A DNA stretch of 64,000 bases from a virus (lineage: Duplodnaviria > Heunggongvirae > Uroviricota > Caudoviricetes). Shown here in pieces: positions 7,050 to 64,000 of the stretch. The stretch lies in IMG/VR virus record IMGVR_UViG_3300028888_000113. One strand, given 5' to 3'. The translations under genes and the position numbers were made by a program. Below the pieces are notes generated by a model that was not told the DNA's origin, searched no databases, and saw nothing but the letters and a program-made list of their open reading frames with translations. The stretch's first letter is position 1. Every line of letters begins with the position of its first letter.

Positions 7050-7068
7050 CTTTTAAATTTAGTTCATC

Positions 7069-7266
7069 ATGGATTCAAAAGAAGAAGTAAAGAATGCAGT
7101 CCACAGTCTTGTGGAAATGTTGGAGGAAGCTGCTAACGTGGCTCGTCGTAACTATGATGCCGCAAAGGTATCTCTTGACGAAGAAGCTGTAAAGAAGTAC
7201 GAAAATCTGTCTATGAGCATCTGCTTCGACTTGCTCAAGGCATCAGAACTTGATAACGAACTTTGA
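7069..7266 (+). CDS. Hypothetical small protein
   Basis: 65-aa ORF. Confidence 0.3.
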   Translation: MDSKEEVKNAVHSLVEMLEEAANVARRNYDAAKVSLDEEAVKKYENLSMSICFDLLKASELDNEL

Positions 7267-9847: not shown

Positions 9848-9852
9848 AGGGC

Positions 9853-12539: not shown

Positions 12540-12580
12540 TTTTTCTCTTTTTAGTTTATTTATTCCCTCCCATTGCGGAG

Positions 12581-12626
12581 TGTGCCTTGTGGCCGCTTGT
12601 GGAGCGGCCTTGGTGGCACACCCCGA
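12581..12626 (-). other. GC-rich stem-loop immediately downstream of VR (DGR homing-associated hairpin candidate)
   Basis: GTGTGCC..GGCCGCT TGTGG AGCGGCC..GGCACAC nested inverted repeat ~50-90 bp 3' of the VR/IMH end. Confidence 0.5.
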
Positions 12627-12671
12627 ATGATTGGGATTGGTTTGTTCTCTCTTGGTTGGCCAAGATAGAAG

Positions 12672-13787: not shown

Positions 13788-13830
13788 GATTATTCTTACT
13801 TTTTTGTTGTTAAAAACTTATGTTTCACAC

Positions 13831-18345: not shown

Positions 18346-18693
18346 CTATTTTATGGTGAATATGTATTGAATCCAAGCAAAGTGACCACGCGCCTTGTTG
18401 TAGAAGAAGCAGTCTTGATGATTGTACGCCTCCTGCTCGAAGCTGACACTCATATAAGCCCTGTCTGAATCAAACTTGCATATCAGATACTTGATGATGA
18501 ACTCAAGGCCGTAGATCACGAAGAATAGCAGCCATAGTGTTTCGAGTTGCTGCAGGGCATGAGTGGTTTCGTGTCTCATATCCGTAACGCTGATACGACA
18601 GTCTCTGCGGACAAAGACGAAAGGCCATATCGTCAATGCCTTGAATCCCTTCATTGGGAAATGCTTCGTATATATCTGTTTCAACTCCATCAT
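18346..18693 (-). CDS. Small protein with HExxH-like motif (HETTH)
   Basis: 115 aa. HETTHALQQ zincin-like signature. Overlaps the end of the large tail protein gene. Confidence 0.3.
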   Translation of the reverse strand: MMELKQIYTKHFPMKGFKALTIWPFVFVRRDCRISVTDMRHETTHALQQLETLWLLFFVIYGLEFIIKYLICKFDSDRAYMSVSFEQEAYNHQDCFFYNKARGHFAWIQYIFTIK

Positions 18694-25743: not shown

Positions 25744-25776
25744 AAAAAAGCGGGGAATTACCCCGCTCTTTATTTG
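25744..25776. terminator. Bidirectional intrinsic terminator (GCGGGG-AATTA-CCCCGC)
   Basis: Perfect 6-bp GC stem with A6 upstream and TCTTTATTT downstream. Serves the + moron and the - TMP gene, whose stop is at 25770. Confidence 0.7.
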
Positions 25777-38792: not shown

Positions 38793-38841
38793 GATGTTTT
38801 AATTGATAAGTTAATATTGATGATTTCAATGTTATCCTGAG

Positions 38842-38914
38842 TGGCGGGAAGCGGACTCGAACCGCTGACCTCAAGGCTATGATCCTCGCGAGCTACCAAC
38901 TGCTCCATCCCGCG
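38842..38914 (-). tRNA. tRNA-Met (CAT)
   Basis: I folded it by hand. Acceptor CGCGGGA/TCCCGCC (1-72 C.C mismatch), D-arm TGGAGCAGTTGGTAGCTCG, anticodon stem CGAGG/CCTTG with loop ATCATAG, T-loop TTCGAGT. Confidence 0.75.
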
Positions 38915-48976: not shown

Positions 48977-50028
48977 TTGGCTAATATGAACGAACTCAAA
49001 CGATAAAAATAGACCAAAATACCATATCGGTCACTAAAACCAAACTGATTCACAACAACTTACAAGCAGAAAATAACGATATATCGAAAATTTCCAGCCT
49101 AAGCCATTTTAGTCTATCGTACCTATCTTAAATTAACCAAATTGCGATGCAAAGATACAACTTTTCGTTAATATCGTGCATTTTTATACATAAAATCCTT
49201 TGTTTATTAGGATTTTTTAATGAACGATATTATTTTTCGCCACCTATATATGATCAGTAGAGTGAACGATATTGTGACATCGTGGGCCAAAATAAAGCCG
49301 CCTGAGAGGAATTGTTAAAACGACCTGAAAAAATGGGGAAAAAATATTTTTGAGGCGACCAAGCGCACAAAAAGCGTGCCAGCAAAGGGGGTGGTAGGGG
49401 TATTAAAGGGTATTTAACACTCTTTGCAAAATTTAGTTAATATTTACACAAAACCCTTTTGTTTACACATTTTTAACACTATATTCTATATTATACCCAA
49501 TAATATAGCATTGTAAATTAATTTTATTTAACACTATTTCCTTGGTTTAACAAATTTTTAGGATTCGCGCCACCTCGTCGCATTCTTTTTTCTTTACAGA
49601 CTTTTTGTCAGTCGAATTTATTTTACACGTTCCTTGATTTATATCAAGTATATTTATACGCTTATGCAATTTATCTCCGGAAAGTGCTTTAAACACAGGG
49701 TTTGCGTTTTTTGGATATGCAGTAATTTCGCGAATCGAAGTAAAAAGGTTTTACATCAGATCTGGCCTAATATTTAACTTGCAATAACATTCCAGGCTGT
49801 TTGTTTAGATCTGTTAAGGAATCAGGCTATATTATGCCATAATACGGCGAAAGTTTAACTAATTTTTACTTGTGTGCGGACACATGGTAAAACGTAAGTT
49901 ATTGATTATCAGCGAGTTAGCACTATTATTTTGTAAAGTTTTTTGGGGTATTGCAAGTATCGTAAAAATGTCGTATCTTTGTAATACAAGAAATGAATAA
50001 GATTACATGTTTAACAAAGGTGCGGTAG
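48977..50028. promoter_or_regulatory. AT-rich divergent control region (candidate lysis/lysogeny switch, repeated operator-like motifs)
   Basis: 1-kb non-coding gap between divergent operons. ACGATAT-type motifs at 49076-49086 (palindromic CGATATATCG), 49170-49177 (inverted), 49222-49231 and 49264-49273. TTTAACACT at 49413, 49472 and 49527. Confidence 0.5.
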
Positions 50029-50580
50029 GTGTTAGGCACGCTGCAAATGCAGAGAAAGGACACCACAAATATTATGAGTAAAAAGAATGTAGAGAACATC
50101 GAGAATCAGAAAGCCGCCATCGAAGAGGGCCGCGAGTTGTCAATGCGTGAGAAAGTTGCAGCCTATATGGCTAACCACGCTGCAGAGCATTTTGCTGCTG
50201 CTTGCAACGATGTCGAGTTAGAGGATGTTGAAGAGTTGCTCGCCAACACTAAGAAAGAAGAGGGCGTTTATTGGTTGTTTACCTGTCCCGTGATTGGTGG
50301 CACTAACTCTAAGACCGGAAAGCCCAACCCCACGAAAGAAGAGTGGGAAAGCGCTAATCCTGACGCTGTGAGAGTTGACAACCTTGCCGGCCGTCAGTGG
50401 TACAAGAAACCTAAGACTCTGAATGATGCAACCGATATTGTGACGATTGCAAGCGGCTGGAATCGCTACAACGATGCTATCGAGGGTGCAGAGAAGAAAG
50501 TCGAAAACACTTTGGCCGCTGCTGCTGCTATCTTAGGTATCACGGTAGAAGAGTTGAAAGCGCTGAAAGGTATTAAGTAA
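50029..50580 (+). CDS. Hypothetical protein (first gene of rightward operon)
   Basis: 183-aa ORF followed by a strong terminator. Confidence 0.4.
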   Translation: MLGTLQMQRKDTTNIMSKKNVENIENQKAAIEEGRELSMREKVAAYMANHAAEHFAAACNDVELEDVEELLANTKKEEGVYWLFTCPVIGGTNSKTGKPNPTKEEWESANPDAVRVDNLAGRQWYKKPKTLNDATDIVTIASGWNRYNDAIEGAEKKVENTLAAAAAILGITVEELKALKGIK

Positions 50581-50605
50581 GCATCCAGCGAACACCGACG
50601 AAAAA

Positions 50606-50645
50606 ATTAGGTAGGGATTTTTCCCTACCCAATTTTTTTTGTACC
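50606..50645 (+). terminator. Intrinsic terminator (GGTAGGGA-TTTTT-TCCCTACC + T9)
   Basis: Perfect 8-bp stem followed by CAATTTTTTTTTG. Confidence 0.7.
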
Positions 50646-50767
50646 AATTTTTTCTGTAATGCAGCCAGGTCAGCAGATCTGAGAGTCACAAGCCTCTATG
50701 AATTGCAGAGTGCAGGAGAAACGGGCGAGCCGAACGAACAGCCCGAACAATTAAAACGAACGAACGA

Positions 50768-51067
50768 ATGAATTATTTGAACGAACAATTCTCTGAGTTG
50801 GCAGTTATCAGCCACAGAGAGACGGGAGAACGGATTGAGGTTTGGCCAGGTTTATTTATGAATCTGTCATTCCCAGTTGTAGAGTTGACGAACGCAGGAA
50901 GAACTTATCTTCGTGCTCTCTGCAAAGACTATTGTGCAGATAAAGTTACTGCAGACGAGGTTGTGAACAATTTCCGCCTGATTGCTGAAACGATAGACTC
51001 TGGCTACACACTTGAGATTCAAGACAAATTTGGAAGTGAGTTTACGAAACTTTTACTTGAAAATTGA
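50768..51067 (+). CDS. Hypothetical protein
   Basis: 99-aa ORF. Confidence 0.35.
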   Translation: MNYLNEQFSELAVISHRETGERIEVWPGLFMNLSFPVVELTNAGRTYLRALCKDYCADKVTADEVVNNFRLIAETIDSGYTLEIQDKFGSEFTKLLLEN

Positions 51068-51073
51068 ACGACT

Positions 51074-51289
51074 ATGTTAGCAATTGTAGCAGAAAGATTT
51101 CTCAGATGCGCACAGCGTCATCTTGACGAGGCAAAAGGATGGTTAGAAATCGCTGAACAAAGAGACGATCTGTTTGGTAAACGGTACGCGAACAAGAAAA
51201 CCGAGTGGCATCTTGATATGGCCCGTTACTGGCAGATGGCAGCGAACAATCTACATTATGTTCCTGGCACATGGGCATATAAATTCTGA
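51074..51289 (+). CDS. Hypothetical protein
   Basis: 71-aa ORF. Confidence 0.3.
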   Translation: MLAIVAERFLRCAQRHLDEAKGWLEIAEQRDDLFGKRYANKKTEWHLDMARYWQMAANNLHYVPGTWAYKF

Positions 51290-52157
51290 ACACAGAGCAC
51301 ACGGAGTACGATTCTCCGTGTAATGTGGCTCACCTCACGGTGAACGGTTGCAAGCCCGTATAAACAGCATTCAAATGGTTAGATCGTAGGTGGAGACCGA
51401 TGGCGTACTCAGTACGAAGTAGGAATAGCCACCGCCACGCAGAAGAAACCGAGAGGTACGAGAGTACGATGACCGACTTACACGGGCGTTAGGCCGCAGT
51501 GATTTCGAGAGTACGATGTGAGCGAGCATTACCTGTAAGGGGAGTATTCGGGAACGATGGCAGTCGGAGTTTAACGATTGCAAGTGGTGTGCCAAAAGCC
51601 CCTGTGTTCCAACAAATCATATTCTTTAGATTATTTCTCCCGTGAGGGAGTACGATAATAACGGCTGGCTACTTGCCGAGTACGACTTGAGCAATCAAGT
51701 ACGATAATATCAGCGGATATTTCGTGGTGGTTCCCGTCGAAAGTACGATAACACATTTAATCACTTTAGGATGTATCGAGCCGCGTGCTTGAGCTGCATG
51801 ACACCCCACCGCCGTAGATGGATTTGATGTTCGTCTGGACGTGTAGAGGAATCTTGCAGATAAGTACGATGAACGGCTGCAATGAAAGATATTAATGGGT
51901 GAGATACCCACAGCATAAAGAACGGCCTGGCAGATGACCTAATCTGCCAATATCCCACGGTTGCGGCAAAGATGCCCTGCTTAGTCAGGAAAGTCGCAGG
52001 AGAATTAACGAAGTGGGAGAGACTACGGGAGAGAGTACGATGCTCTGAGATATGCGGCCCTCCAAAAGCTAACAAGCTGGAGGTGTTTATGGACCGCGAA
52101 CTATACTCGAAGACGCGCTGCTCTCTCTTTCTACAAACCATTTAAATAAGTACGATT
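51290..52157 (+). repeat. Non-coding region with ~11 dispersed same-orientation copies of AGTACGAT(G/A/T)
   Basis: Exact AGTACGAT at 51305, 51463, 51510, 51649, 51698, 51742, 51863, 52034 and 52149. Variants at 51411 (AGTACGAA, inside palindrome CGTACTCAGTACG) and 51679 (AGTACGAC). First copy sits in the loop of hairpin CACGGAG-TACGATT-CTCCGTG. No + strand ORF of 60 aa or more. Confidence 0.6.
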
Positions 52158-52367
52158 ATGAAACAGAGAATTATTTTGCATCTGACTATGTTCGTAGTCC
52201 TGATGCCTTGTTTGCTTGTGTTCAATGTCAGCAATGATTGTTGGATTAACCTGCTTGGTCTCATTTACTGCTGCTATCTTATTATCGTGTTGAATGAGAG
52301 TAAGAGAGCGCAGAAGTTTGTACGTCGTTACTATCATGAGATTCTTCGCTTGGAGAGCATGATGTAG
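52158..52367 (+). CDS. Small membrane protein
   Basis: 69 aa, two hydrophobic segments. ATG directly preceded by the last AGTACGATT copy. Confidence 0.35.
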   Translation: MKQRIILHLTMFVVLMPCLLVFNVSNDCWINLLGLIYCCYLIIVLNESKRAQKFVRRYYHEILRLESMM

Positions 52368-52436
52368 TCTGCCTGATATTTGTGGCGAAAAAGCTGCAAA
52401 TATCGCTCATGTTTAACCAACTAAAATGATTGATTT

Positions 52437-52706
52437 ATGGCAAAGTTAGATTTACTTAAAAAGGCCGCTCAGATTCTCAGAAAGAGCGACCATTATCTGA
52501 GGAACAAAGAGAGTAATTTCTCCAGCAGATTCGATTTTGTTCAGAACAAACAGAACGGCGCAATCAGTGTGTTCAATGCAGAGAAGGATAACGATCTATT
52601 CCTGTGGGATGATTATCTAAATTGTGTTGTCGGTGCTCTTGGTTTGAGTCACTACATCACGGTTGACAAGTTTGATGTAAAGAAGCTTGTGTACTACATC
52701 TATTAG
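52437..52706 (+). CDS. Hypothetical protein (cassette-array gene)
   Basis: 89-aa ORF bounded by the stereotyped intergenic module. Confidence 0.35.
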   Translation: MAKLDLLKKAAQILRKSDHYLRNKESNFSSRFDFVQNKQNGAISVFNAEKDNDLFLWDDYLNCVVGALGLSHYITVDKFDVKKLVYYIY

Positions 52707-52764
52707 TCTCTCTTGGCTGGCTTGCATGTCAGCCAACAAGTAATAACCACTAAAAACAAAGATT

Positions 52765-53019
52765 ATGAAAAAGAAGTTATTTGCGACAAATGCGATTTTC
52801 CGCTGTATTGTCACGCTCAAGAACGGATTCCACAAGACTCTGAGGCTGACCATCGACAAGGTGGCCATGTTCAACGCTGCATTCAAGCAAGTAAAGGAGG
52901 TTGGTCTGCTTAACGCCCGTTACACTGAGTTCATGAAGAAGATAGAATTGAACGGCTACGAGATCAAGTCGTGCAAGTTCTTCAACGAGAGGACGGGAGA
53001 GTTATTCCTGAGCCTGTAG
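52765..53019 (+). CDS. Hypothetical protein (cassette-array gene)
   Basis: 84-aa ORF. Stop TAG followed by TCT-hairpin-box. Confidence 0.35.
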   Translation: MKKKLFATNAIFRCIVTLKNGFHKTLRLTIDKVAMFNAAFKQVKEVGLLNARYTEFMKKIELNGYEIKSCKFFNERTGELFLSL

Positions 53020-53539
53020 TCTTATTTGCGGCCCGCGTGGCCGTACAATTCAACCAAACTGATAGATTATGAATATCTTCAAAGTATTGAAGCACAAGAG
53101 CGGCTTTTGGTACGTTGGCAAACTGCTGACTGTTGACCCTGATGGTGTTCCTGTATATCAGAGACTATCAGAGCTGTATTGTTACAGAGGATGGGCACTG
53201 AATTTTGCCCGTCGTATGTGTATCAAGTTATCGTAGCCTTTTCGGCATGGGTGGGTTTTATTCGTTCGTTCGCCTGCCTGTGCTGCTACAAACCAATTCT
53301 ATATAATTATGCCACAACAGAGATTTATTATCATGTACGAGGATCTGTACTACACTACAGAGCCGCCAGTGTGGGGACCTACGTTCACACCGAACAAAGA
53401 GAAGGCCCACATGTTTTCATCTGAGAGCGAGGCACGTAAGAAAGCCGACGATCTTGCTACGTTCCGTCTTTCTGTTTTGCCTGTTTAGTCTCTTTTCGGC
53501 TCTTGCAAGGGCCGAACTATTCACCAAATTTTTAGAATC

Positions 53540-53938
53540 ATGAATATTGTAGATCAGATTATGAACGAGTATCGTCAGAGACCGAATCATGGGATCCAGT
53601 TTTCCATTGAGTCCGAAGCGTATAAGTGTAGGGTGGGGGACAGGGTTTCCTTTGGCGACAATACTACCGTGTTGCAGTGTGGGAGTTTCTACAACTACCA
53701 GGACATTATCCTTGACGGCAATGTCATAGGTTATCTTGAAGAGGTACAGAGTGGCAGGCTGTTCGACCCGATGACTATTTCATTCGTCATCCCGATTGCC
53801 GACTGCTCAGAGCAAGATGTATGGGAAAAGATGCTTGTACAATTCGCCGGCAATCCACATCTGAGTGACGAGGGCGAATCTCTTGTGTTGCGCTTCGCCA
53901 CACTGAATCAGATCCTTGACCACCTCTCAATCAATTAG
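53540..53938 (+). CDS. Hypothetical protein (cassette-array gene)
   Basis: 132-aa ORF. Confidence 0.35.
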   Translation: MNIVDQIMNEYRQRPNHGIQFSIESEAYKCRVGDRVSFGDNTTVLQCGSFYNYQDIILDGNVIGYLEEVQSGRLFDPMTISFVIPIADCSEQDVWEKMLVQFAGNPHLSDEGESLVLRFATLNQILDHLSIN

Positions 53939-53983
53939 TCTCTTGCAGCCGAACGGCTGCACTATTCACCAATACATACGAAT

Positions 53984-54292
53984 ATGAAAGCAATACAAGT
54001 CTTGAATTGGATTATCAAGCAAAGTATCTCAGGAGAAATCCTAAACTTTGTTGATGTCCCTGCTGAGAATGACGAGTTTACACCACAAACCGAAGAGTGG
54101 TGGACTGAGCAGTTTGGTTTTCCACCTCCAACACCAATCAAGGAAGGGAAATATCTCTACTATTACATGAGTTCTGAAATGGAATGGATTACTGATGAAA
54201 TAGGTTTTGAGCCTGATGTAACAATAGAGTTGCCAAATGAGGATAATATGTTTGGATCAGATCTTATTTACCTTTATCGCATGGAGGATTGA
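53984..54292 (+). CDS. Hypothetical acidic protein (cassette-array gene)
   Basis: 102-aa ORF. Confidence 0.35.
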   Translation: MKAIQVLNWIIKQSISGEILNFVDVPAENDEFTPQTEEWWTEQFGFPPPTPIKEGKYLYYYMSSEMEWITDEIGFEPDVTIELPNEDNMFGSDLIYLYRMED

Positions 54293-54517
54293 CTATGGCA
54301 AAGGCAAAACTCAAATGGCTCACGTTCACTGATAATCCTCAGTGGGGCCGTTATTTTATCGGAGAGAGCGACACCAGGAGCGAGGCCGTTGACAAAGGTA
54401 AGGCAGCAGGCAAAGGAAAGTTTGTCGTGGAGCGTCGCTACAAATGGAAGTAGTCTTGAGCGGTTCTTGCATGAGCCGCACAATATAACCTGAATATAAC
54501 CCAAATATAACCCGATT

Positions 54518-54766
54518 ATGATTGAAGTGAAGAAAACCACCTATATGGTGGATGGATGCCAGGAGCCTTGCTTTGAGGTTTCCGACGGCTACGCTATGGT
54601 CCGTATTGCAAAGATGTACCACTATATCGGTGGGAATACTCTTGCAATGAGTGAGTATCTTGATGGCGAGTGGAATGGCTCAGACGAGTGGGATGGAGAT
54701 TTCGATTCTCTCACGGAGTCAGACGCAAAGGCTCTTGCACTCAAGTATTCTGCTTATCTCGATTAG
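54518..54766 (+). CDS. Hypothetical protein (cassette-array gene)
   Basis: 82-aa ORF. Confidence 0.35.
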   Translation: MIEVKKTTYMVDGCQEPCFEVSDGYAMVRIAKMYHYIGGNTLAMSEYLDGEWNGSDEWDGDFDSLTESDAKALALKYSAYLD

Positions 54767-54824
54767 TCTCATTATCATTTTCGTGATGTCGCGAAAATGA
54801 TACAATAACCAATTATTTACGATT

Positions 54825-55313
54825 ATGGAATTACTTATCATTAACAACGCATTTGCAGATTGTTTCACTATCTGCATCGATTCAGAAGTAAGCGTAGGCA
54901 TTGAGCGGGCCAAGAAGTCTTATGAGCGTGACAAGGCTACATACGAAAGCCATCTTGTAAACTATCCGAACATGGCTGACCATTGGCAGTTTCAACTTGA
55001 CAAGACAAACAAAATCCTGCAATCCGGCTTCCGTGCCGTTACATGGGAAGAGTATTGCAAACTCCAGCGTGAAAGATGGCTTAGCAAAGAGCCGAAGGAG
55101 ATCACAGAAGAAGACTTTTACTACGCTTTAAATGTCCTGCCGCCTAAGAAATGGATCCGCAACGAGCGTTATTCCATGTTTTTCATTGGAGAATGTACTA
55201 CCATGACTTTCTATGGTCAGTATCTACAAGACAAGGAAAGCGGTAAATACTATTATGCCATGGCCGACATCTCCGACGAATCCACTTGGCTTGACAAGAT
55301 GCTTAATCTCTAA
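54825..55313 (+). CDS. Hypothetical protein (cassette-array gene)
   Basis: 162-aa ORF. Confidence 0.35.
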   Translation: MELLIINNAFADCFTICIDSEVSVGIERAKKSYERDKATYESHLVNYPNMADHWQFQLDKTNKILQSGFRAVTWEEYCKLQRERWLSKEPKEITEEDFYYALNVLPPKKWIRNERYSMFFIGECTTMTFYGQYLQDKESGKYYYAMADISDESTWLDKMLNL

Positions 55314-55333
55314 ACTTCCTGGCGATTATCGCC

Positions 55334-55708
55334 ATGAAGTACAACACACCAATATTTACGATTATGATTATTACAGAAGAAACAAAGAAACGCTTTATGC
55401 GTATGCTTGCTGACATGCAGATTATTGTCATTCAGCACAAGTGTCACCGTGCTTCTTACTTGTTCAAGTTTATCGGTGCCAACGATGCAGGCAAATGGGA
55501 TTTCACACCTATGGTTGTAGATGTTGCTGGTATCGAGTACAATGGCGAAATGAGCACGGAAAACCTATCTGTTTTAGGCAAGGATGCTGCAGACATTCTC
55601 ACCAAGGTTGTCAAGAAATTGATGTGCGGAGGTAATTGGATGTTTGCAGAGACCTACCACGAAATCTATGAGAAGGTTCGCGAGCATATCACAACCTTCT
55701 ATATGTAG
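55334..55708 (+). CDS. Hypothetical protein (cassette-array gene)
   Basis: 124-aa ORF. Confidence 0.35.
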   Translation: MKYNTPIFTIMIITEETKKRFMRMLADMQIIVIQHKCHRASYLFKFIGANDAGKWDFTPMVVDVAGIEYNGEMSTENLSVLGKDAADILTKVVKKLMCGGNWMFAETYHEIYEKVREHITTFYM

Positions 55709-55768
55709 CCTCTAATCATTTTCGTGACCTCACGAAAATGGTACATTAACCCCTAAAAATAAAAGAAT

Positions 55769-56098
55769 ATGGAAAATTCAATTATGACAGATGCAAAGCG
55801 CATCAACGAGATTACTGGCCGTCCGATGGCAGAGTGTGAGAAACAGGCTCAGCAGATTGCAGAGTGTATCAAGGAAATGAACAGTCGAATCGTTGAGTTC
55901 TACTACATGAAGAAAGATGGATCCAAGCGTCAGGCGTTCGGCACATTGCAGCCGGAGGTGATTGTTCCTATTATCAGTCAGGCACCAGAGCGCAAGCCTA
56001 ATCCCGACCTTGTGACGTACTACGACACAGAGGCACAGGCATTCCGTTCTTTCAAGAAGGTCAATTTCATCGAGTACGTCAAGCAATCTCAGGCATGA
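55769..56098 (+). CDS. Hypothetical protein (cassette-array gene)
   Basis: 109-aa ORF. Confidence 0.35.
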   Translation: MENSIMTDAKRINEITGRPMAECEKQAQQIAECIKEMNSRIVEFYYMKKDGSKRQAFGTLQPEVIVPIISQAPERKPNPDLVTYYDTEAQAFRSFKKVNFIEYVKQSQA

Positions 56099-56296
56099 AC
56101 AAGTTCGTTGTATATGCCTGGTGTTTCTTTCTTGCCTCACTGACATTCGGTATATGGACTATCCCGATGGTCATTGTGGCAGTACTATTGATTCTGTTTC
56201 TTCTCCGGAAGAAACCTGATTGGTTCAAATGAAAAGTCTCAAGCCGTGCAAAGGACACGGCACTCATTATGTTTCACCATTTAAAAAGAAAGAATT

Positions 56297-56770
56297 ATGA
56301 AAGAGATCAAGAAAACTATCGAGAGCTACAAGTATGTTTACGTTGCCATTGACGGAACAGAGTTCGAAGACAAGGAAGAATGCTGCAAGTACGAGCATAG
56401 TGCGAAAGGTGTAATTGTGACGAAGTTCTTGCCGCTTGTTGTAAAGCAGAAGACAGAGTTCGAGATTTTTGGTGCAGGGAATGATGATTCTATGATTAGC
56501 ATCGTGAAGCTCGAATCTAAGGAAGATGCAGACATAGTTCTGCAGCTCTATCTCCTGAACAATCCTTATATGGCCAAGGATGACAGAAAGAAAGATCTCG
56601 AAGCTATTGCTTCACGCATTCGTCGTGCTGCCGAGCAGAGAGATTACATCTTCATCGGTCACGGTTACGAAGGTGATGATTTTTGGTTTGCAGGAACACG
56701 CAATGAGCATATTGAATGCCTCAACAAAATCTGTGAGCCAGAGACCGAAACCAAAACTGCATCTGAGTAG
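56297..56770 (+). CDS. Hypothetical protein (cassette-array gene)
   Basis: 157-aa ORF. Confidence 0.35.
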   Translation: MKEIKKTIESYKYVYVAIDGTEFEDKEECCKYEHSAKGVIVTKFLPLVVKQKTEFEIFGAGNDDSMISIVKLESKEDADIVLQLYLLNNPYMAKDDRKKDLEAIASRIRRAAEQRDYIFIGHGYEGDDFWFAGTRNEHIECLNKICEPETETKTASE

Positions 56771-56821
56771 TCTTTATCTCCCTTTGCATAGGGAGAGCTT
56801 CTAACCACAAAATTATGAAAT

Positions 56822-57028
56822 ATGAAAAGAACTGAAATTGTATTAGAGTTTATGAAGGTTGTTGCTCCTGTTTTTGCTCAGCAGGGCAGTGCGTTAATCA
56901 AGCAGTTGGCCGACGCAGGTCACGATCCCAGTAAATGCACATCTGGCGGCATGGACTTGCTTCATGCTTATGCAAAGAGCGCAAGGGAGTGGGCCGAAGC
57001 TTTTGCAGACGAATACGAAAAGGATTAG
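56822..57028 (+). CDS. Hypothetical small protein (cassette-array gene)
   Basis: 68-aa ORF. Confidence 0.3.
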   Translation: MKRTEIVLEFMKVVAPVFAQQGSALIKQLADAGHDPSKCTSGGMDLLHAYAKSAREWAEAFADEYEKD

Positions 57029-57082
57029 TCTCTCCAGGAGCCTTAGCATAGGCTCCTACTATTCACCAAAACATTACAGAAT

Positions 57083-57589
57083 ATGAACAAAGACAAATCT
57101 ATCTACGCTTGCTATGAAGAAATCAAGCAACGTGAAATCAGTGAGCTAATGGAGAAAGTACGTCTCATGAAAGGACAATACGTTTTTCAAACTCTCGAAG
57201 CTCCATGCGTCTTGGTAAACTTCGACGATGGGCCGTGTGAAGATGTGCGTGTTGGCTCTGTTGAGATTCAAAATGTCAGTGAGACAGAGATCCTATGTAT
57301 CTTTGACACATTTGGAAATCAGATAAAGCTATCTGATATTGCCTACGGCCACATTGAGTTCATAACAGAGTCTATTCCATGCAGGACATTCTCACAAGAA
57401 AGTTTCTGTATATCAAGACTGAGCCGTGAAGACCTTGATAGCATAGGTTTTGATACGTCAGATATTGATGACAAGACAATGCAGAGACTTGCAGAGAAGC
57501 TTGGCGATGACTATTGTGAACAGTTATTCTGGACTTCGCTTGAGATTATTGCAGAGGAAGGGTTCAATATTCCCCGCAAAGAAGGATGA
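57083..57589 (+). CDS. Hypothetical acidic protein (cassette-array gene)
   Basis: 168-aa ORF. Confidence 0.35.
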   Translation: MNKDKSIYACYEEIKQREISELMEKVRLMKGQYVFQTLEAPCVLVNFDDGPCEDVRVGSVEIQNVSETEILCIFDTFGNQIKLSDIAYGHIEFITESIPCRTFSQESFCISRLSREDLDSIGFDTSDIDDKTMQRLAEKLGDDYCEQLFWTSLEIIAEEGFNIPRKEG

Positions 57590-57697
57590 TCCGAAGAGGA
57601 CGATGATGACGAATAGAAGTCATAATTGTAGTTTTTAGTTGGTTGAGGTGGGGCCGTTTACAGCGACCTCACCTTTCAATTATTCACCAAAAACTTA

Positions 57698-58177
57698 TTG
57701 AATATGAAAATTGACATTTGCAAAGTAACCAGTAATCCAGATTTCGCAAGGATGGCTGCAGAATATCTTGCATACTCATTGCAGGACGTGAAGACGTATC
57801 AAAACCTCACCCCAAAGGAGCGAGAGATTATCAGCGAGGAGATGTTCAATAGCATTCAGCATCTTGACACAAGACAAATGTTCACCGAATTGAAACAGAA
57901 ACACCCAGACGCAATCTTGCTTTTCAGAATAGGTGATTTCTATGAGGCTCGCGACAAAGATGCAGAAGTCTGCTCAAGCATCCTTGGCATCACGCTTACG
58001 GTCAGAACTAACGACAAATTGGCAGGCTTCCCACATCATGCACTTGATACATATCTGCCAAAACTCATTCGTGCCGGCCATCGTGTAGCCATCTGCGATC
58101 AGTTGGAGGATCCGAAAATGACAAAGAAACTCGTAAAACGAGGCATCACAGAACTTGTCAGCCCCAGACTTACTTAG
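57698..58177 (+). CDS. Stand-alone MutS domain I (mismatch-recognition domain) protein
   Basis: [24 protein letters not shown]...ITLT.R...[32 protein letters not shown] aligns to the E. coli MutS N-terminus (HPEILLFYRMGDFYELF...PMAGIPYHAVENYLAKLV..GESVAICEQ..DP), including the mismatch-contacting Phe-x-Glu. 159 aa with no ATPase domain. Confidence 0.7.
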
Positions 58178-58233
58178 CCTCAGCCATTTTCCCATTATCG
58201 GGAGAATGGTGCTCTAACCAAAATTTTAAGAGT

Positions 58234-58929
58234 ATGAAAGAAAGAACGTTTTTACCCGTGAACTGTTGGGCAGCGGAAGATATTCCATCCAACAAAATCA
58301 TTGATGCAAATCCTGAGAATCTGAGCAATGCAGAGTTGCTTTCGATTATCCTTGGTACAGGTTCCGACAAAGAAACATCTGTTGACTTGGCGAGAAGGAT
58401 TCTCATGTCTTGCGACAATAATCTTGCAGAACTCTCTAAGAAAACACCTCGCCAACTCACATATATGCGTGGTGTCGGCAAGCAGAAAGCTGCAAAGATT
58501 ATTGCAGCAATGGAACTCGGAAAGCGCAGGCAGAATCAAATACTGTCTGATAAGCCTGACTTGGGTACGGCTTGCCGTATCTACAATCACATGCACCCAA
58601 TCATGCAGGATCTCGACGTTGAAGAGTTCTGGTGCCTTTTTATAAATCGTAACTACAAACTTATCAAGAAGTTCCGAGTGTCGAGAGGTGGACTTACAGA
58701 AACAGCCGTAGATATTCGTATCATCATGCGTGAGGCCGTTGTCTCAAATGCGACAATCCTTGCAGTATGTCACAATCACCCGTCTGGAAATCTTACTCCA
58801 TCTAAGTGTGATGACGAACTTACAACGTCAATCAAGCGTGCTTGTGAAGTAATGAGAATCTATTTCCTGGATCACGTTATCATTACAGATGGCGCATACT
58901 ACAGTTATCATGAGCAAGGGCGCATTTAG
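58234..58929 (+). CDS. radC: RadC-like JAB/MPN domain protein
   Basis: N-terminal HhH-like ELLSIILGTGSD and the catalytic JAMM motif HNHPSGNLTPSKCDDELT. Confidence 0.75.
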   Translation: MKERTFLPVNCWAAEDIPSNKIIDANPENLSNAELLSIILGTGSDKETSVDLARRILMSCDNNLAELSKKTPRQLTYMRGVGKQKAAKIIAAMELGKRRQNQILSDKPDLGTACRIYNHMHPIMQDLDVEEFWCLFINRNYKLIKKFRVSRGGLTETAVDIRIIMREAVVSNATILAVCHNHPSGNLTPSKCDDELTTSIKRACEVMRIYFLDHVIITDGAYYSYHEQGRI

Positions 58930-58990
58930 TCTTCTTTTTGACCACCTTTTTGACTGAGGTGGTCAAAACCATAACCAAACTTTTACGAAT

Positions 58991-60283
58991 ATGAATAAAA
59001 AAGATTTATTGAGTTATTGCTGGAAGCATAGTCTGTTCGGCAATGTCGTAACAACCGACGGGAAGAGTGTTGACATTTTAGATCCAGGATTGCACAATCG
59101 CAACGAAGGGCCTACGTTTTTCAATGCGAAAGTCAGATTCAACAACACTCTTTGGGTGGGTAACGCTCAGATTCTCGTAAATTCCTCAGATTGGTACTTG
59201 AATAGTTTTGATCGTAATCATAAGTACGACAATGTTATTCTTATCATCTGTGACATCGTGGACTCAGAGGTTACAAACTCGAAGGGTGAGACTATTCCGA
59301 TAGCACAAGGCATTATTCCTGAGAATGTCACTCGCAACTGCAATACTCTCATGGGACTTGGCGGCGATTTCCTCTGTCATAGTTATGTCATGGAGTATTC
59401 TACGACACTTATGCGTCATGCGTGGTTGTCTGCTATGCAAACAGAATGGCTTGAGCAGAAGACTGAGCATCTACGTCAGATCTACCGTCAGAACAAATCA
59501 ATGGAAGACACGTTCTTTATCTCTCTGTTCAGCAGCTTTGGCTTTGGTGCCAACGATGATGTAATGGAGAAACTTGCAAATGCGGTTCCTATGAGTGTTA
59601 TTGACAATTATCGCGACGATCTGTTTCAGATAGAGGCCATCATCTTAGGCCAGGCTGGCTTGATTACAGACATAGAGTGTGTTCCAGAGAAGTTTCATGA
59701 TAAAACCTTGATGGAAGGATATTTTCAGAGACTCCGTAACGAGTATCTGTATCTTGCCCATAAGTATTCGATGAAACCAATCTCTGCAAGATTCAAGCCG
59801 TTCAACCGACGCTTCTCCAGCCCTCATGTGTACCTGTCGATGCTTGCAAACCTCATTTACAGAAGATCTATCAGCAGCAGCATAGTCACTGGTCTTGCTT
59901 CTGCAAAGGAAGTCATGGATCAGCTCTTCACAAAGGCTACTCCATATTGGGAAATGCACAATCAGTTTGGTGCCATTACAAACAAGACAGAGAAGAAACT
60001 GAGTTTCGATAAGATGTCGTACATCATGGCTGCTTCCATCGTTCCGTTCCTCTTCTTCTATGGAAGAGAGAAGTCTAATGAGGAAATCTGTGACCGTGCT
60101 TTCGACATCATGGAGCAGATGAAGGTTTTCTCTACTGCAGAATCATCGTCTTTCGCCAAGCACGGATTGGAGCCGGCTACAGCAGGAGATACGATTGCGC
60201 TAACTCAGATGAAACGTGAGTATTGCCAGAAGCACGACTGCCTGCGTTGTCGCTTTGGCTTTGAGTTCATTAGAAAGCATTAG
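58991..60283 (+). CDS. Conserved hypothetical protein (430 aa)
   Basis: Long ORF ending in a Cys cluster (CQKHDCLRCRFGFEF). No motif I can assign. Confidence 0.4.
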   Translation: MNKKDLLSYCWKHSLFGNVVTTDGKSVDILDPGLHNRNEGPTFFNAKVRFNNTLWVGNAQILVNSSDWYLNSFDRNHKYDNVILIICDIVDSEVTNSKGETIPIAQGIIPENVTRNCNTLMGLGGDFLCHSYVMEYSTTLMRHAWLSAMQTEWLEQKTEHLRQIYRQNKSMEDTFFISLFSSFGFGANDDVMEKLANAVPMSVIDNYRDDLFQIEAIILGQAGLITDIECVPEKFHDKTLMEGYFQRLRNEYLYLAHKYSMKPISARFKPFNRRFSSPHVYLSMLANLIYRRSISSSIVTGLASAKEVMDQLFTKATPYWEMHNQFGAITNKTEKKLSFDKMSYIMAASIVPFLFFYGREKSNEEICDRAFDIMEQMKVFSTAESSSFAKHGLEPATAGDTIALTQMKREYCQKHDCLRCRFGFEFIRKH

Positions 60284-60301
60284 TCTCTTAGAGAGCCTTG
60301 C

Positions 60302-60556
60302 ATGGCTCTCACTATAAACCAATCTAAAAGAATTATGGCATTATACACTGGAGAAGAAGCGAGGAAAATAGTTCACATGATTCTCGCTCATTACAATGAG
60401 GACAGCAAACGCTATCCTCTGTTTATTGGCTGTTGTGGCTACTTTGAGAATGAGGATGGCACTTGGTCCGCATGGGATAACATGACGGGCGACTGTTGGT
60501 GCGAGGATTTCAAGACCAAGAATGAGGCCATTGCCTACGTCGAAGAGTATCATTAG
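60302..60556 (+). CDS. Hypothetical small protein (likely starts at the internal ATG near 60335)
   Basis: The annotated ATG lies inside the intergenic hairpin loop (TTGCATGG). A downstream ATG has the array's usual AAGAATT-ATG context. Confidence 0.3.
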   Translation: MALTINQSKRIMALYTGEEARKIVHMILAHYNEDSKRYPLFIGCCGYFENEDGTWSAWDNMTGDCWCEDFKTKNEAIAYVEEYH

Positions 60557-60615
60557 TCTATCATGGTTGTGAAACATGCTTCACAACCATCAATCAACTT
60601 TTAAAACAAAGAATT

Positions 60616-61035
60616 ATGAACAAAGTAGATTTAAGAAACGGCCTTGACTATTGCCGTAACTATATGATCTCGCAACTCACTCAGTATGTTCTTGAGCATG
60701 GTGAGGAAATGTGTGATTATTATCGTAACGAACATGGTATAGATGATGACGAGGTTCTTAAACTTATAGACCTCGCTGACTGCGGTTGCTATTTCTCGTT
60801 GCCACAGAAGTTCCAGGCAGAGAATAATGAAGATGATTACGAACATTCTGCTTTCTGGACGTTATATGTAATTAGGGAAAGCGATGGCGAGATCAATTTG
60901 ATGTATTATCGTTTCTATAACTACGGATTTGATTTCGACGATGAACTATCTGAGCCTGATCACGACTATGCAGCCAGCCTTCCTATTTCGGCACTGGAGT
61001 ATATATATGAAGCCGTCCTATCGATTCCAGATTAA
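60616..61035 (+). CDS. Acidic hypothetical protein (last cassette-array gene)
   Basis: 139-aa ORF followed by a terminal copy of the intergenic module (CTGCCGA-TTCG-TCGGCAG, TAACAACCAAA). Confidence 0.35.
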   Translation: MNKVDLRNGLDYCRNYMISQLTQYVLEHGEEMCDYYRNEHGIDDDEVLKLIDLADCGCYFSLPQKFQAENNEDDYEHSAFWTLYVIRESDGEINLMYYRFYNYGFDFDDELSEPDHDYAASLPISALEYIYEAVLSIPD

Positions 61036-61117
61036 GTCTTTTTAACTGCCGATTCGTCGGCAGTGCTAACAACCAAATAGTAAACTATATTCAAAATTGT
61101 ACAGAATGTGCGTTCGC

Positions 61118-61382
61118 TTGTGCCCTTCACTTGTGCCCTTGATTTCTCAAAGTGCATGTGTTTATCGGTGTTTAGTTGTGCCCTTTGTTGTGCCCTTTAA
61201 CTGGTAAATAATTGACAAATATTGCTTAGATATAATGTATTTTGTAAATAATATTTATAAAATATCGAATTTCTTTCCGAAGTCTTTACAAAATATGCCA
61301 CTTGGGCACAGCAAAGGGCACGGCGCTCTTTCTGATAATCAATGTGTTACAAGCATTTGGGGCACAACGTAGGGCACAAAAC
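61118..61382. promoter_or_regulatory. Second iteron locus / origin-like region: 4 direct TTGTGCCCTT + AT-rich spacer + 4 inverted AAGGGCACA
   Basis: TTGTGCCCTT at 61118, 61131, 61176 and 61187. ~100-bp AT-rich spacer. GGGCACA-type copies at 61304, 61314, 61359 and 61371. 61301-61380 is homologous to the iteron stretch 464-572 inside the rep-like gene. Confidence 0.55.
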
Positions 61383-61544
61383 GCGCGTGTATTTATAAGG
61401 TACGCACGTTAATATAATTATATAAATATATTAATATAATAATATAAAAATATAGGTTTCGATCCGAAGTTAAAATTGTGGTCTCTGGCTGTTAAATCTT
61501 CTAAAGCAGCACTATATTATAAAATAATATTATAACTTTGCATT

Positions 61545-62483
61545 ATGAAAGAATTGAGAGGGCTCACTTATGAGCAAAACAAGAAGTTTCGCTACGCAAT
61601 AGAGTGCGGCTACTTCGACACATGGGAGCAGGACCCTCGAAAGTGGAAGCATACTTTCATTGGTGCTTTCCTTTGGAAATACCCTTCAAGGGTAAAAGTC
61701 CTGAATATACTCAAGGATATTATCGGCAATATGCCTGTATGGGAAGACATCAATGATGAAACATTGCGCGACCTTATTGATGAACTTTCTGCAAATGAAC
61801 TTGCACCCGGATCTATACGAACGATGTGTGCAGAACTGAAAGCCGTACTAAACGAGAATGCCAGGCGCATACCTTCTACAGACTTCGCAAAGATTCTGTC
61901 TATCAAAGGTACGGCTACTCAGTCCACTTATCTCACAGTCCACGAAATGGAATTGTTCTTGTCTTATGTTCCAAAAACAGATATTGAGCATTTCGTACAT
62001 CGTACCTTCTGTGTGTCTATGCTTACTGGCGCACGTCAGGTTGACGCTGCCCGTCTTACGATAAGTAACTGTGACATGGAAACAAACATGCTGTCCTATG
62101 TTCCTCAGAAAACTCCAGGGCTTATCGTCAGAGTTCCCGTTGATGAAAGACACGGCTTGCGCAATTTCCTTGCCGACGTGAATCTTGAGCCGTGTTGCCT
62201 TGATACGTTCAATGATGTGCTTAGAAGAATATGCAGCGAGATAGGAATTGAAACGGTATGTACCGTTGTCAAGGCAGGAAAGAATATCACAGAACCCAAA
62301 TGGAAACTTGTCAGCTCTCACACGGCCAGACGAACGTTTGCCACGAACCTCTATCTTGCTGGTGTATCTCTTGAAGACATAGCAATGATGATGGGACACG
62401 GAAAGAATATTGAAACGACTAAGCGGTATGTCTGTGCAGAGCGCACACTGAATCCAAATGTCATGTCTTACTTCCAGCCATAG
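61545..62483 (+). CDS. Tyrosine recombinase (Bacteroides-type integrase family)
   Basis: C-terminal catalytic signature SSHTARRTFATNLYLAGVSLEDIAMMMGHGKNIETTKRY (HxxR...GH...RY). Co-directional with the 50-61 kb array. Confidence 0.7.
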   Translation: MKELRGLTYEQNKKFRYAIECGYFDTWEQDPRKWKHTFIGAFLWKYPSRVKVLNILKDIIGNMPVWEDINDETLRDLIDELSANELAPGSIRTMCAELKAVLNENARRIPSTDFAKILSIKGTATQSTYLTVHEMELFLSYVPKTDIEHFVHRTFCVSMLTGARQVDAARLTISNCDMETNMLSYVPQKTPGLIVRVPVDERHGLRNFLADVNLEPCCLDTFNDVLRRICSEIGIETVCTVVKAGKNITEPKWKLVSSHTARRTFATNLYLAGVSLEDIAMMMGHGKNIETTKRYVCAERTLNPNVMSYFQP

Positions 62484-62485
62484 TC

Positions 62486-63712
62486 TTAGGGCAGCTCACT
62501 GCCCACCAAATAACCAATAACTCTTCTGACGGCATTATCAATCTTTCGCTGATCGGTGGCCATATATCGCGACGTAACATTCTTAGCCCATGAGTGGCCG
62601 AGGCACATGCCTATAGTTCGCTCAGATATATCAAGGTCATTGGCAGCGATAGAACCGAACGAGTATCTGGCTGAGTAAAGGGTAATCTCAGGACATATAG
62701 GCTCATACTCCATCTTACGGAGTTTTCCTACTTTGTCCTTTACCTTATGAGAAGGTCCAACCTTCTGCAGAGCATCATTGCAGGCTCTTGCGAACGAACG
62801 ATAGGAGTTTCTGCAGTCCATAAATCCGGTGAGCCATCCTTCATCCGATGGATAGCGATCAATGATTTCTTGCGCCTCTGGAAGTACAGGCAGCGTGATT
62901 GTCCTAATCTTTGTGGAACCTTGCTTGTTGGTCTTCTGCCTTACGAATGTCAGATGACCGTCTTTTATTGCGTCTGATTTCAGACTCAGCAGATCTACGG
63001 GGTTGATGCCAGCAAGGTAGAAACTCAGAAAGAAGAAGTCAACGTATGGCTTCTGCCATGACTCGCAAGGGTAGTCACGCAGTCTTCTGAGGTCTTCAAC
63101 GGATATATTGTTTGGAACGGTTTCTTCTTCCACGATATGATAATCCAAGAAGGGATAGTTCTGTGTAAGGCCACGCTTTCGTGCCCAATTGAAGACGGCA
63201 CGTATATTTCGCAGTTCCTTGCCGACACCGTTGATACTCATTCCTTCTTCTATATAGTGTGATCTGAACGATTCTATCCACTCTTTATCTATTGACAGGC
63301 CTGCCTTGCTATCAAAGTCCAGGACCTTACGGGCTGTCAGTTCATAGATGGATCGTGTTTGTTCCGTTTTTGTTCCGGCAAACTCGTAGATGTAATCGGA
63401 TAGGGTAGAGGTTTTCGGTACCATGCCGAAGACTTTCTCTTGGATTTCCTTCTTGAGTTGTTTGTTATCAGTCTTGGATAGTTCAGACTGCAGGCACAGA
63501 ACTTCAATGTCAGCAAGATACTTACCGAGAAGTGTAGTCTTAGCTTTCCCAGCTTTATCAGCTTTGGGAAAGAGCATACCAACCAGTTTGTCGGTAGTAG
63601 TGAGGCCCGTATTCACGAAGAAACGGCCTTGCTTGTTCTTTACTACGACGTACACAGGATATGTGCCGTCAGAGTTAGATCTCGTTGTGTCAACGTAAGG
63701 ATGGATTCTCAT
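62486..63712 (-). CDS. Tyrosine integrase with N-terminal Arm-DNA-binding domain, adjacent to tRNA-Gly
   Basis: 408 aa. N-terminal arm-binding-like domain, SAM-like core-binding domain, catalytic LYSARYSF...LGHS...TSRY. Lies 190 bp from the 3' end of tRNA-Gly. Confidence 0.8.
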   Translation of the reverse strand: MRIHPYVDTTRSNSDGTYPVYVVVKNKQGRFFVNTGLTTTDKLVGMLFPKADKAGKAKTTLLGKYLADIEVLCLQSELSKTDNKQLKKEIQEKVFGMVPKTSTLSDYIYEFAGTKTEQTRSIYELTARKVLDFDSKAGLSIDKEWIESFRSHYIEEGMSINGVGKELRNIRAVFNWARKRGLTQNYPFLDYHIVEEETVPNNISVEDLRRLRDYPCESWQKPYVDFFFLSFYLAGINPVDLLSLKSDAIKDGHLTFVRQKTNKQGSTKIRTITLPVLPEAQEIIDRYPSDEGWLTGFMDCRNSYRSFARACNDALQKVGPSHKVKDKVGKLRKMEYEPICPEITLYSARYSFGSIAANDLDISERTIGMCLGHSWAKNVTSRYMATDQRKIDNAVRRVIGYLVGSELP

Positions 63713-63901
63713 TTGAGTTGAATTTTGTTTGTTAATACTTGCTGACCATTATTTCGGTCAGCATTCTGATTGCTGTTTGATTTGCTGACTTTTTTCAGCC
63801 CTCAAAAACCCGCAAAAACGGCATTTTTCAACTCAGATTTGCTTATCTCTAAGCCTTTTCTTTCATAGGTTTTCGGCGTAACCGCCTGATTATCAATGTA
63901 G

Positions 63902-63972
63902 AGCGGAATACGGGAATCGAACCCGCCTCCCAGGCTTGGGAAGCCCGTGCACTACCGATGTGCTAATTCCGC
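63902..63972 (-). tRNA. tRNA-Gly (CCC), probable prophage attachment site
   Basis: I folded it by hand. Acceptor GCGGAAT/ATTCCGC, D-arm GCAC-ATCGGTA-GTGC, anticodon stem CGGGC/GCCTG with loop TTCCCAA, T-arm GCGGG-TTCGATT-CCCGT. Confidence 0.85.
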
Positions 63973-64000
63973 TTACAGCAAATTTTCGGATTTTCTGAGA

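Follow-up and report, generated by a model that had tools for sequence, protein, structure and literature searches.

Stem-loops placed between genes are a feature of several described systems. Repetitive extragenic palindromic (REP) elements in malEFG are intercistronic stem-loops that stabilize the message, and in the RNase III sites of phage T7 the duplex is long and irregular, at about 20 bp or more. The promoter-early stem-loop (PeSL) cassettes of T4-type phages (Arbiol 2010, PMC2839356; Comeau 2014, PMC4122927) and the start-associated sequences (SAS) and extended forms (ESAS) of cluster K mycobacteriophages (Pope 2011, PMC3203893) are the phage elements closest to the one considered here. 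In operons, intergenic stem-loops act as cleavage and stability signals (PMC10311766), and RNase Y cuts 6 nt upstream of a double-stranded element (PMC5449607). Here, we describe a linker of about 55 bases (the module) that is repeated between the small genes of an accessory array in a 64,000-nt stretch of viral DNA, IMG/VR record IMGVR_UViG_3300028888_000113 (the window, for the whole stretch). The window is almost wholly a tailed temperate phage of Prevotella type, encodes a terminase, an SPP1-type portal, a tape measure, and a D5-type primase, and contains the phage end, where a 408-aa integrase adjoins tRNA-Gly. We consider the module to be, with a probability of roughly 0.55, a composite of RNA linker and homologous-recombination joint that is specific to one phage family.

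The module and its array

The array carries a module at 19 of its 21 junctions when the junction after the last gene is counted in, and the only two module-free junctions are those of overlapping or abutting gene pairs (54292/54295 and 56098/56095).

52158-61035, + strand: accessory array of 21 small co-directional genes (curated)

The initial annotation had described about 15 genes with stereotyped gaps and had listed 16 instances of the linker. All 16 were found where it placed them, and both the array and the module stood; the count did not, as there are 21 genes and four further module copies (53234-53311, 54451-54520, 55311-55366, and 62481-62520).

For comparison, 196 non-redundant copies with 178 distinct hairpins were collected from 18 sources (some tallies use 195 copies). 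Their consensus reads (T)AGYCT, 2-4 nt, a GC-rich hairpin of variable sequence, ACNAT, a T[AC]ACC[AC] box, 12-17 G-free nucleotides, and ATG. Across the collection, the 5' motif takes the form (T)AG(T>C)CT(C/T)(T/A) and is followed by a spacer of 2-4 nt; the stem is 5-14 bp long (mostly 6-8, median 7-8) and the loop mostly 4 or 6 nt; the link after the hairpin is AC(T/C/A/G)AT, alone or lengthened to 8-9 nt; and the box occurs as TAACCA, TCACCA, TAACCC, or AAACCA and ends 12-17 nt before the ATG. The geometry of the hairpin is fixed and the sequence of its stem is free. A strict scanner, which required AGYCT, a hairpin at most 9 nt away, an [ACT][AC]ACC[ACT] box at most 22 nt on, and an ATG 6-22 nt later, gave 13 matches on the + strand of the array and none on the - strand, against a mean of 0.13 in 100 shuffles. 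When compared with dinucleotide shuffles, 16 of 18 gaps fold with z of -2.2 or lower. The individual copies are as follows (L numbers are our own handles; L199 is the closest relative).

52365-52439, + strand: module 1, with TAGTCT, a 13-bp hairpin, a TTTAACCAAC box, and ATG (z -3.3)
52704-52767, + strand: module 2, with a TTGCAT loop (z -2.7)
53017-53071, + strand: module 3 (z -1.7)
53234-53311, + strand: module 4, degenerate, with TAGCCT, a long imperfect structure, and an AAACCAA box; homologous copies in L002, L075, and L199
53486-53542, + strand: module 5 (z -2.5); L199 homology stops just past its box
53936-53986, + strand: module 6, hairpin GCAGCC-GAAC-GGCTGC, reused in L008, L075, and L101 (z -3.4)
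54451-54520, + strand: module 7, with three tandem ATAACC(C) boxes (z -2.7)
54764-54827, + strand: module 8, hairpin ATCATTTTCGTGA..., left copy of the module pair that bounds a two-gene indel (z -3.7)
55311-55366, + strand: module 9, a weak form with a TAA stop, no AGTCT, a short hairpin GGCGATTATCGCC, and an ACACCAA box
55706-55771, + strand: module 10, right copy of the repeated module pair (z -5.7)
56230-56299, + strand: module 11, hairpin GCCGTG-CAAAGGA-CACGGC, which relatives carry unchanged in 12 or more other contexts
56768-56824, + strand: module 12 (z -2.2)
57026-57085, + strand: module 13, with 45 nt 100% identical in L199 between differing flanking genes (z -3.4)
57587-57706, + strand: type II module, with anti-box TTTTTAGTTGGTT, hairpin GAGGTGGGG...CCTCAC, and TTTCAATTATTCACCAAAAAC (-23.3 kcal/mol, z -3.2)
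58175-58236, + strand: module 15, a TAGCCT variant (z -4.4)
58927-58993, + strand: module 16, hairpin wholly swapped in L199 between conserved genes (z -4.8)
60281-60337, + strand: module 17 (z -3.2)
60554-60618, + strand: module 18 (z -3.9); L199 homology stops at TAGTCT
61033-61100, + strand: terminal module, with TAAGTCT, a hairpin, and ACAACCAAA, and no gene downstream (z -2.8); similar terminal copy in L199, L201, and L205
62481-62520, + strand: module-like 3' element after the recombinase gene, with TAGTCT, a hairpin, and ACCAAATAACCAAT (z -2.7); kept in relatives

Before its ATG, the box series of module 7 runs ATATAACC TGA ATATAACCC AA ATATAACCC.

The strong preference for TAG stops noted earlier is real (15 of 21 array genes against 11 of 68 other open reading frames (ORFs) of the window; Fisher p = 4e-6), and follows from the overlap of the stop codon with the AGTCT motif; what is conserved at the 5' side is AGYCT and not the stop codon itself. 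In genes that end in TAA or TGA, AGTCT comes after the stop (TAAGTCT, TAAGTCTC, TGAAGTCTC, TGAAGTCT, TAAAGTCT), which indicates that the motif is conserved in its own right. AGTCT and a hairpin also stand 3' of the last array gene and of the separately promoted recombinase gene, with no gene downstream in either place, and the element is therefore tied to 3' ends. The copy after the recombinase gene overlaps the 3' end of the convergent integrase gene.

The type II module occurs in 11 of the 18 sources. Upstream it carries an anti-box, UUUUAGUUGGUU, which complements the box and is predicted to pair with it; this suggests a possible regulated occlusion of one start region per array. Its consensus is TTTT(T)AGTTGGTT, a GGGGYGRGG...CCCGCCC hairpin, and TTTCTATT, followed by the box, and its U-rich tail is the most terminator-like element of the array. 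Type II sites lie at L001 10540, L008 10381 and 11215, L078 4865, L199 6026, L205 2238, L213 2734, L214 5332, L218 7503, L220 6126, and L094 4353.

Four array genes have a family match: WYL_2 (55769-56098), MutS domain I only (57704-58177), RadC (58234-58929), and DUF2851 (58991-60283). The other array genes have none. The MutS domain I protein is a stand-alone domain. The WYL_2 protein, which has an Sm-like fold, is among the most widespread array genes and is a candidate RNA-binding factor; the host group is reported to be without Hfq and ProQ (PMC7366714).

Specificity, expression signals, and folding

Copies of the module recur in the corresponding arrays of related rumen phage contigs, at least 17 in number, in which the strict scan gave 187 matches on the gene strand versus 5 on the opposite strand. 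The nearest genome-resolved relative lies inside a Prevotella metagenome-assembled genome from roe-deer abomasum, the sole match in the genome collection, and the remaining relatives all come from rumen or gut viromes and metagenomes. A scan of IMG/VR with the module pattern returned chiefly lone chance matches, with four or five contigs as true relatives, and an exact-protein look-up of RadC added one short identical contig. The array had no megablast match among GenBank phages, an Rfam scan of 49000-64000 gave no match to the module at E <= 1, and no account of the module turned up in the searchable literature on Prevotella or Bacteroides phages.

This distribution bears on the simplest account, namely that the module is nothing special and consists of a generic host ribosome-binding context next to ordinary terminator-like hairpins found genome-wide. 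We regard this account as exceedingly improbable. It gains from the A residues at -14 to -12, -6, and -3, which are generic in Bacteroidia and recur, more weakly, at other genes of the phage. However, AGYCT, ACNAT, and the ACC box are not generic, and the full module was matched only once in 59 kb of flanking DNA beyond the integrases (a small sample of host DNA), 13 times, on both strands, in 1.35 Mb of unrelated Bacteroidales-type phage loci that share one protein domain only, and not at all in a dense + strand gene block of the phage itself, at 2307-7573. Thus, a generic host signal explains the A-rich start context, whereas the whole module is specific to the phage family. In other lineages (IMG/VR L111, L119, L132, and L134), a sister module has an AGCCTAA 5' motif, with TAGCCTAA(A/G)AA in place of TAGTCTYT, and leaves the hairpin, box, and start context unchanged. 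The architecture is wider than the phage family studied here.

The 3' half of the module matches the translation-initiation regions of the host group. Ribosome profiling and reporters in Flavobacterium johnsoniae showed which features favor initiation in these organisms, which lack Shine-Dalgarno sequences: low structure, and A at -14 to -11, -6, and -3 (Baez 2019, PMC6847099). In 78 ATG-anchored modules, A stands at -14, -13, and -12 in 64, 78, and 85%, at -6 in 63%, and at -3 in 86%, T stands at -1 in 91%, and G makes up 0-8% from -22 to -10. The A positions are those of the Bacteroidia initiation region (PMC6847099), and genes of the phage outside the array follow the pattern more weakly. 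The position matrix supports the proposal that a translation-initiation unit is reiterated along the array. The start context and box had been presented as conserved parts of the linker; the AAA in the box, like the (A/C)GAAT-ATG context, belongs to the general Bacteroidia signature, and the two are best read as a sharpened host-type initiation region.

A reiterated promoter, also proposed initially, is not supported in a host-type form. The -7 promoter box of Bacteroidetes is TAnnTTTG (PMC7366714), and it occurs in 1 of 195 modules. TTTG-N17-23-TAnnTTTG was absent from the + strand of the window, and the region has just two + strand -7 boxes, one ahead of gene 50047 (at 49974) and one ahead of the recombinase gene (at 61533). 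Attempts to read the TTGCAT loop and the box as host promoter, sigma-54, or sigma-70 elements were rejected on spacings and consensus. A scan of about 50 window proteins recognized none as a sigma factor, RNA polymerase, or RNase. The remark that the hairpins lack T-runs was borne out, with a T-run 3' of the stem in 6 of 195 modules and a single array hairpin flagged by a terminator scan, so that they do not qualify as intrinsic terminators; classical T-run terminators do occur elsewhere in the window, for example at 50610-50640. Nor are the hairpins RNase III sites of the T7 type, as had been suggested, since stems of 5-14 bp are too short.

The main rival to the composite reading starts from these signals. 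It holds that each module is a PeSL-type unit, with the hairpin as attenuator and the box as a phage-specific, non-canonical promoter, and that each gene is its own transcription unit with a short leader. The layout is indeed that of the T4-type cassettes, with a stem-loop, a conserved box, and a start codon in a hyperplastic region; the box lies at a fixed distance from the ATG, is kept as TTCACCCTTTAAA in Bacteroides phage BI-TP1, and has an ACC that falls outside the translation signature. On the other hand, a start within the box would leave a leader of at most 20 nt, with the key adenines at its extreme 5' end, and terminal modules have no gene to drive. With the host -7 consensus in 1 of 195 modules, no polymerase or sigma gene among the proteins scanned, and hairpins that have no U-tracts, we consider this reading unlikely.

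Upstream of the array, the block opens with a candidate promoter and a long leader.

49974-49981, + strand: host-type -7 box TATCTTTG, candidate promoter and the only one upstream of the + strand block
50610-50640, + strand: canonical terminator, a hairpin with T8, behind the first gene (50047-50580)
50653-50716, + strand: Twister-P1-like ribozyme (53.6 bits, below the gathering threshold of 67.2; E 9e-11)
51291-51359, + strand: Twister-P5 ribozyme (43 bits, above the gathering threshold of 37.6)
51360-52157, + strand: non-coding leader of about 800 nt with 10 further AGTACGA repeats, the last abutting the first ATG of the array

AGTACGA occurs 21 times in the window against 4.6 expected, and 11 of the copies cluster at 51290-52157. 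The repeat-rich leader is kept in relatives (L002 1710-2933, L220 60-581, and L201 61-482). The twisters flank two small leader genes, a position kept in L002 (1284-1347 and 2097-2154). ACGAT also occurs as a variant of the post-hairpin link.

The stems and loops of the hairpins bear on the strand on which they fold. UNCG and GNRA loops stabilize RNA hairpins. In the 178 distinct stems, 1288 positions are Watson-Crick pairs, 38 are G·T, 5 are A·C, and 5 are of other kinds; the stem search had weighted every non-Watson-Crick position alike. Because each sense-strand G·T reads as A·C on the opposite strand, the excess of G·T over A·C (38 versus 5; p = 2.5e-7) means that the fold was selected on the sense strand. 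Among 72 tetraloops, 14 are UNCG (1.1 expected) and 6 are GNRA, and the frequent TTGCAT loop is found in one orientation only. These observations favor an mRNA structure. A count of helix covariation gave 91% paired positions (0 of 500 shuffles), with hairpins pre-selected for pairing, so that this is not independent evidence. Pairing between the TAGT and ACTA flanks is possible in about half of the modules; both motifs are conserved, so covariation is uninformative there. Pairing of UAGUCU with AGAUUA before the AUG was rejected as a general feature, being predicted in two modules and with a compatible base at -2 in only about a third.

The same data speak to a reading at the DNA level, in which AGTCT, ACNAT, the box, and the loops are operators for a phage regulator, like stoperators or the ESAS inverted repeats of cluster K. 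A palindrome flanked by short invariant motifs would suit such operators, as would the reuse of identical hairpins across many contexts, and family-specific start-associated repeats offer a precedent (PMC3203893). However, a DNA-binding dimer would be expected to conserve the arms, which have no consensus; the G·T over A·C asymmetry and the UNCG loops indicate a single-stranded sense fold; and the modules are strictly co-oriented with the genes. Operators of this kind seem improbable to us.

Homology breakpoints and probable recombination at the modules

Test cases for cassette-like evolution were provided by the relatives. Gene content between modules varies strongly among them, which supports the cassette-like behavior suggested initially: 265 module-flanked proteins form 116 families, of which 66 are singletons and none is universal. 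The order of shared genes is mostly kept. Compared to L199, the array is a mosaic of segments with 79-100% identity, and segments end at TAGTCT (52370, 53939, 60559, and 57027), just past a box (53527, 54491, and 57071), or just before one (58979). Of the 102 homology ends in ten genome pairs, 38 lie in modules; modules account for 5-8% of the sequence (also given as 6-7% of the length; p about 1e-18).

Three loci show what happens at these joints. First, the module at 57027-57071 is 100% identical in L199, where the upstream genes are unrelated and the downstream genes are 37% identical. Second, in the gap between RadC and DUF2851 the hairpin has been fully replaced relative to L199, and identity rises from about 75% to 100% exactly at the box. 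Third, the window genes at 54825-55708 sit between two modules with near-identical hairpins, whereas L199 has a single module there; this module is chimeric, its left part corresponding to the left window copy and its right part to the right copy, with the switch inside the hairpin. The chimera is best explained as the footprint of homologous recombination between repeats and not of a fixed-site recombinase. The hairpins had been called gene-specific, which turned out to be incorrect: identical hairpins recur between unrelated genes, and 110 of 157 similar-hairpin pairs lie between non-homologous genes, for example GCCGTG-CAAAGGA-CACGGC in many genomes.

A recombinase gene closes the array, and the arrangement had been likened to an integron.

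61545-62483, + strand: tyrosine recombinase of 312 aa at the array end; a -7 box of its own, TAACTTTG, lies at 61533

That -7 box lies 4 nt before the ATG, which implies a nearly leaderless recombinase mRNA. An integron-like reading would make the modules attC-like sites of the 312-aa recombinase, unrelated in sequence to those of integrons, and the empty terminal module the point of insertion; the recombinase would then capture and excise gene cassettes. Several features fit: each ORF is followed by a variable palindrome with conserved flanks, a recombinase gene ends the array in all relatives, the empty terminal module adjoins the recombinase and its GGGCAC-repeat region, junctions lie at module edges, and 45 nt of one module are 100% identical between differing genes. 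However, attC cores (R'', RYYYAAC, and R', GTTRRRY, in order) were found on either strand in 0 of 196 modules, and the recombinase scores 20 bits against the integron-integrase model TIGR02249 (cut-off 265) and is a generic tyrosine recombinase. Junctions after the box, before the box, at AGTCT, and within a hairpin leave no single fixed crossover. The sense-strand folding and RNA-type tetraloops argue in the same direction, as does the largely conserved gene order among relatives. Moreover, Bacteroides phage BI-TP1 (LoVEphage type) has a 37%-identical recombinase in the same place before a convergent integrase and has no AGTCT modules, only three gaps with a hairpin and then TTCACCCTTTAAA. 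We therefore did not retain the integron comparison, and consider integron-like capture in this broader form very improbable.

The short recombinase gene converges on the true integrase gene (62486-63712, - strand), a pair kept in BI-TP1 (L228) at 11983-13992, and in LoVEphage-type Bacteroides phages the short gene comes after a ParA-like gene. Iteron-like GGGCAC(A)/GTGCCCTT repeats are clustered at 462-568 and at 61120-61400, with five exact copies in either place, and are also present in L199 at 9470-10000. The first cluster lies inside a 284-aa gene (117-971, with no family match) in a lambda O/ori-like arrangement, and the second between the array end and the recombinase gene. These repeats may be an origin or a binding region for a regulator or the recombinase. 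Elsewhere in the phage, a tRNA-Met gene (38841-38914, - strand) lies between the structural and packaging modules, and two giant ORFs run on the - strand, at 18690-24695 (2001 aa; no Pfam match) and 25770-32318 (2182 aa; with the tape-measure domain).

The composite reading and known systems

In the composite reading, the module would organize the expression of a long polycistronic transcript of accessory genes. Since internal promoters and terminators are absent, the block appears to form a single long transcript, and the conserved leader of this transcript would comprise a terminator that needs read-through, two twister ribozymes, and the GUACGA-repeat region. The 5' half of the module (AGUCU, 2-4 nt, and the hairpin) would form the non-terminating 3' end of the upstream cistron, in which the hairpin, by analogy with selective RNA processing and stabilization (PMC10311766) and with RNase Y cleavage guided by a duplex (PMC5449607), most likely protects or defines processed ends and insulates the start region from the upstream coding sequence. 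AGUCU, 5-9 nt ahead of the stem, is a candidate cleavage or binding site. The 3' half (ACNAU, the U(A/C)ACC(A/C) box, and the G-free spacer) would provide an open, unstructured initiation region for the downstream cistron. Since all accessory genes would thereby share the same ends, the modules would also serve as homologous or short-homology recombination joints, at which genes would be gained, lost, and exchanged among related phages.

Several points weigh against this reading. Co-transcription, the stabilization or processing of the message, and the part played by AGUCU are inferences. The only recognizable promoter upstream of the array (49974) precedes a strong terminator (50610-50640), which transcription from it would have to read through. 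The G·T asymmetry would also fit the folding of + strand single-stranded DNA. The T(A/C)ACC part of the box falls outside the known host initiation signature. With respect to recombination, an AGTCT motif of 6-8 nt is short for ordinary homologous recombination, and the enrichment of breakpoints could partly reflect selection for intact genes. In addition, AGUCU, ACNAU, and the recurrent CUUGCAUG and CAAAGGA loops are not accounted for by stability or insulation alone. Such invariant motifs and loops suggest a specific binding or cleaving factor, and, taken with the twisters and the GUACGA leader, AGUCU, ACNAU, and the CUUGCAUG loops point to a putative, uncharacterized RNA-processing or RNA-binding step.

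The module bears on how phages of the dominant gut and rumen Bacteroidia, which do not use Shine-Dalgarno sequences, express long runs of acquired genes. It resembles a plug-and-play expression linker, and its roughly 200 natural variants are possible parts for Bacteroides and Prevotella engineering. It also extends the idea that shared regulatory linkers drive gene shuffling, put forward for PeSLs, from lytic T4-type phages that infect Proteobacteria to temperate Bacteroidales siphophages.

Compared to the systems described to date, the module shares some features with each and differs from each. Integron attC sites are likewise imperfect palindromes with conserved ends that follow promoterless ORFs in a co-directional array with a tyrosine recombinase nearby. 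However, the module system has no R''/R' cores, no IntI-type integrase, and no single crossover; its recombinase is distal and has its own promoter, and its hairpins fold on the sense strand with RNA-type loops. T7 RNase III sites resemble the module in that their hairpins, too, separate cistrons on a polycistronic phage transcript of early or accessory genes, and differ in that their duplexes are about 20 bp or more whereas module stems are 5-14 bp. Selective RNA processing and stabilization also relies on GC-rich intergenic stem-loops without terminator tails that set cleavage and protect ends (cip-cel, PMC10311766; RNase Y, PMC5449607). Those structures are single and operon-specific, while the module is stereotyped, is repeated about 20 times, and is shared across genomes.

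The SAS and ESAS of cluster K are family-specific repeats just before gene starts in the non-structural half of temperate siphophages; about half are preceded by an inverted repeat whose spacer varies, the host genome has none of them, and their function is unproven (PMC3203893). They are tied to genes of differing families. The module, too, is a family-specific repeat at a fixed short distance before the ATG, as judged against a host sample of 59 kb. However, SAS is a 13-bp sequence that contains a Shine-Dalgarno and has no stop-overlapping motif, and a 17-bp consensus in the arms of ESAS points to a protein site, whereas the arms of the module are free in sequence and its structure, flanks, and some loops are conserved.

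PeSLs resemble the module in that a reiterated stem-loop, expression signals, and a start codon flank ORFans in hyperplastic regions, in that indels and replacements are bounded by the motif, and in that recombination between copies deletes the intervening genes (PMC2839356). In the array, the module is similarly a reiterated motif that flanks variable genes and bounds their indels and replacements. PeSLs differ in having a host-consensus sigma-70 promoter and a proven terminator, whereas the module has the -7 box in 1 of 195 copies and no U-tract; the module is also shorter, with about 15-25 conserved nucleotides, has the extra stop-overlapping AGYCT, and belongs to a host without Shine-Dalgarno sequences. 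The module is thus set apart from PeSL and SAS/ESAS by its stop-overlapping 5' motif, its stems, which are free in sequence and conserved in structure, its non-Shine-Dalgarno start, and its lack of a promoter.

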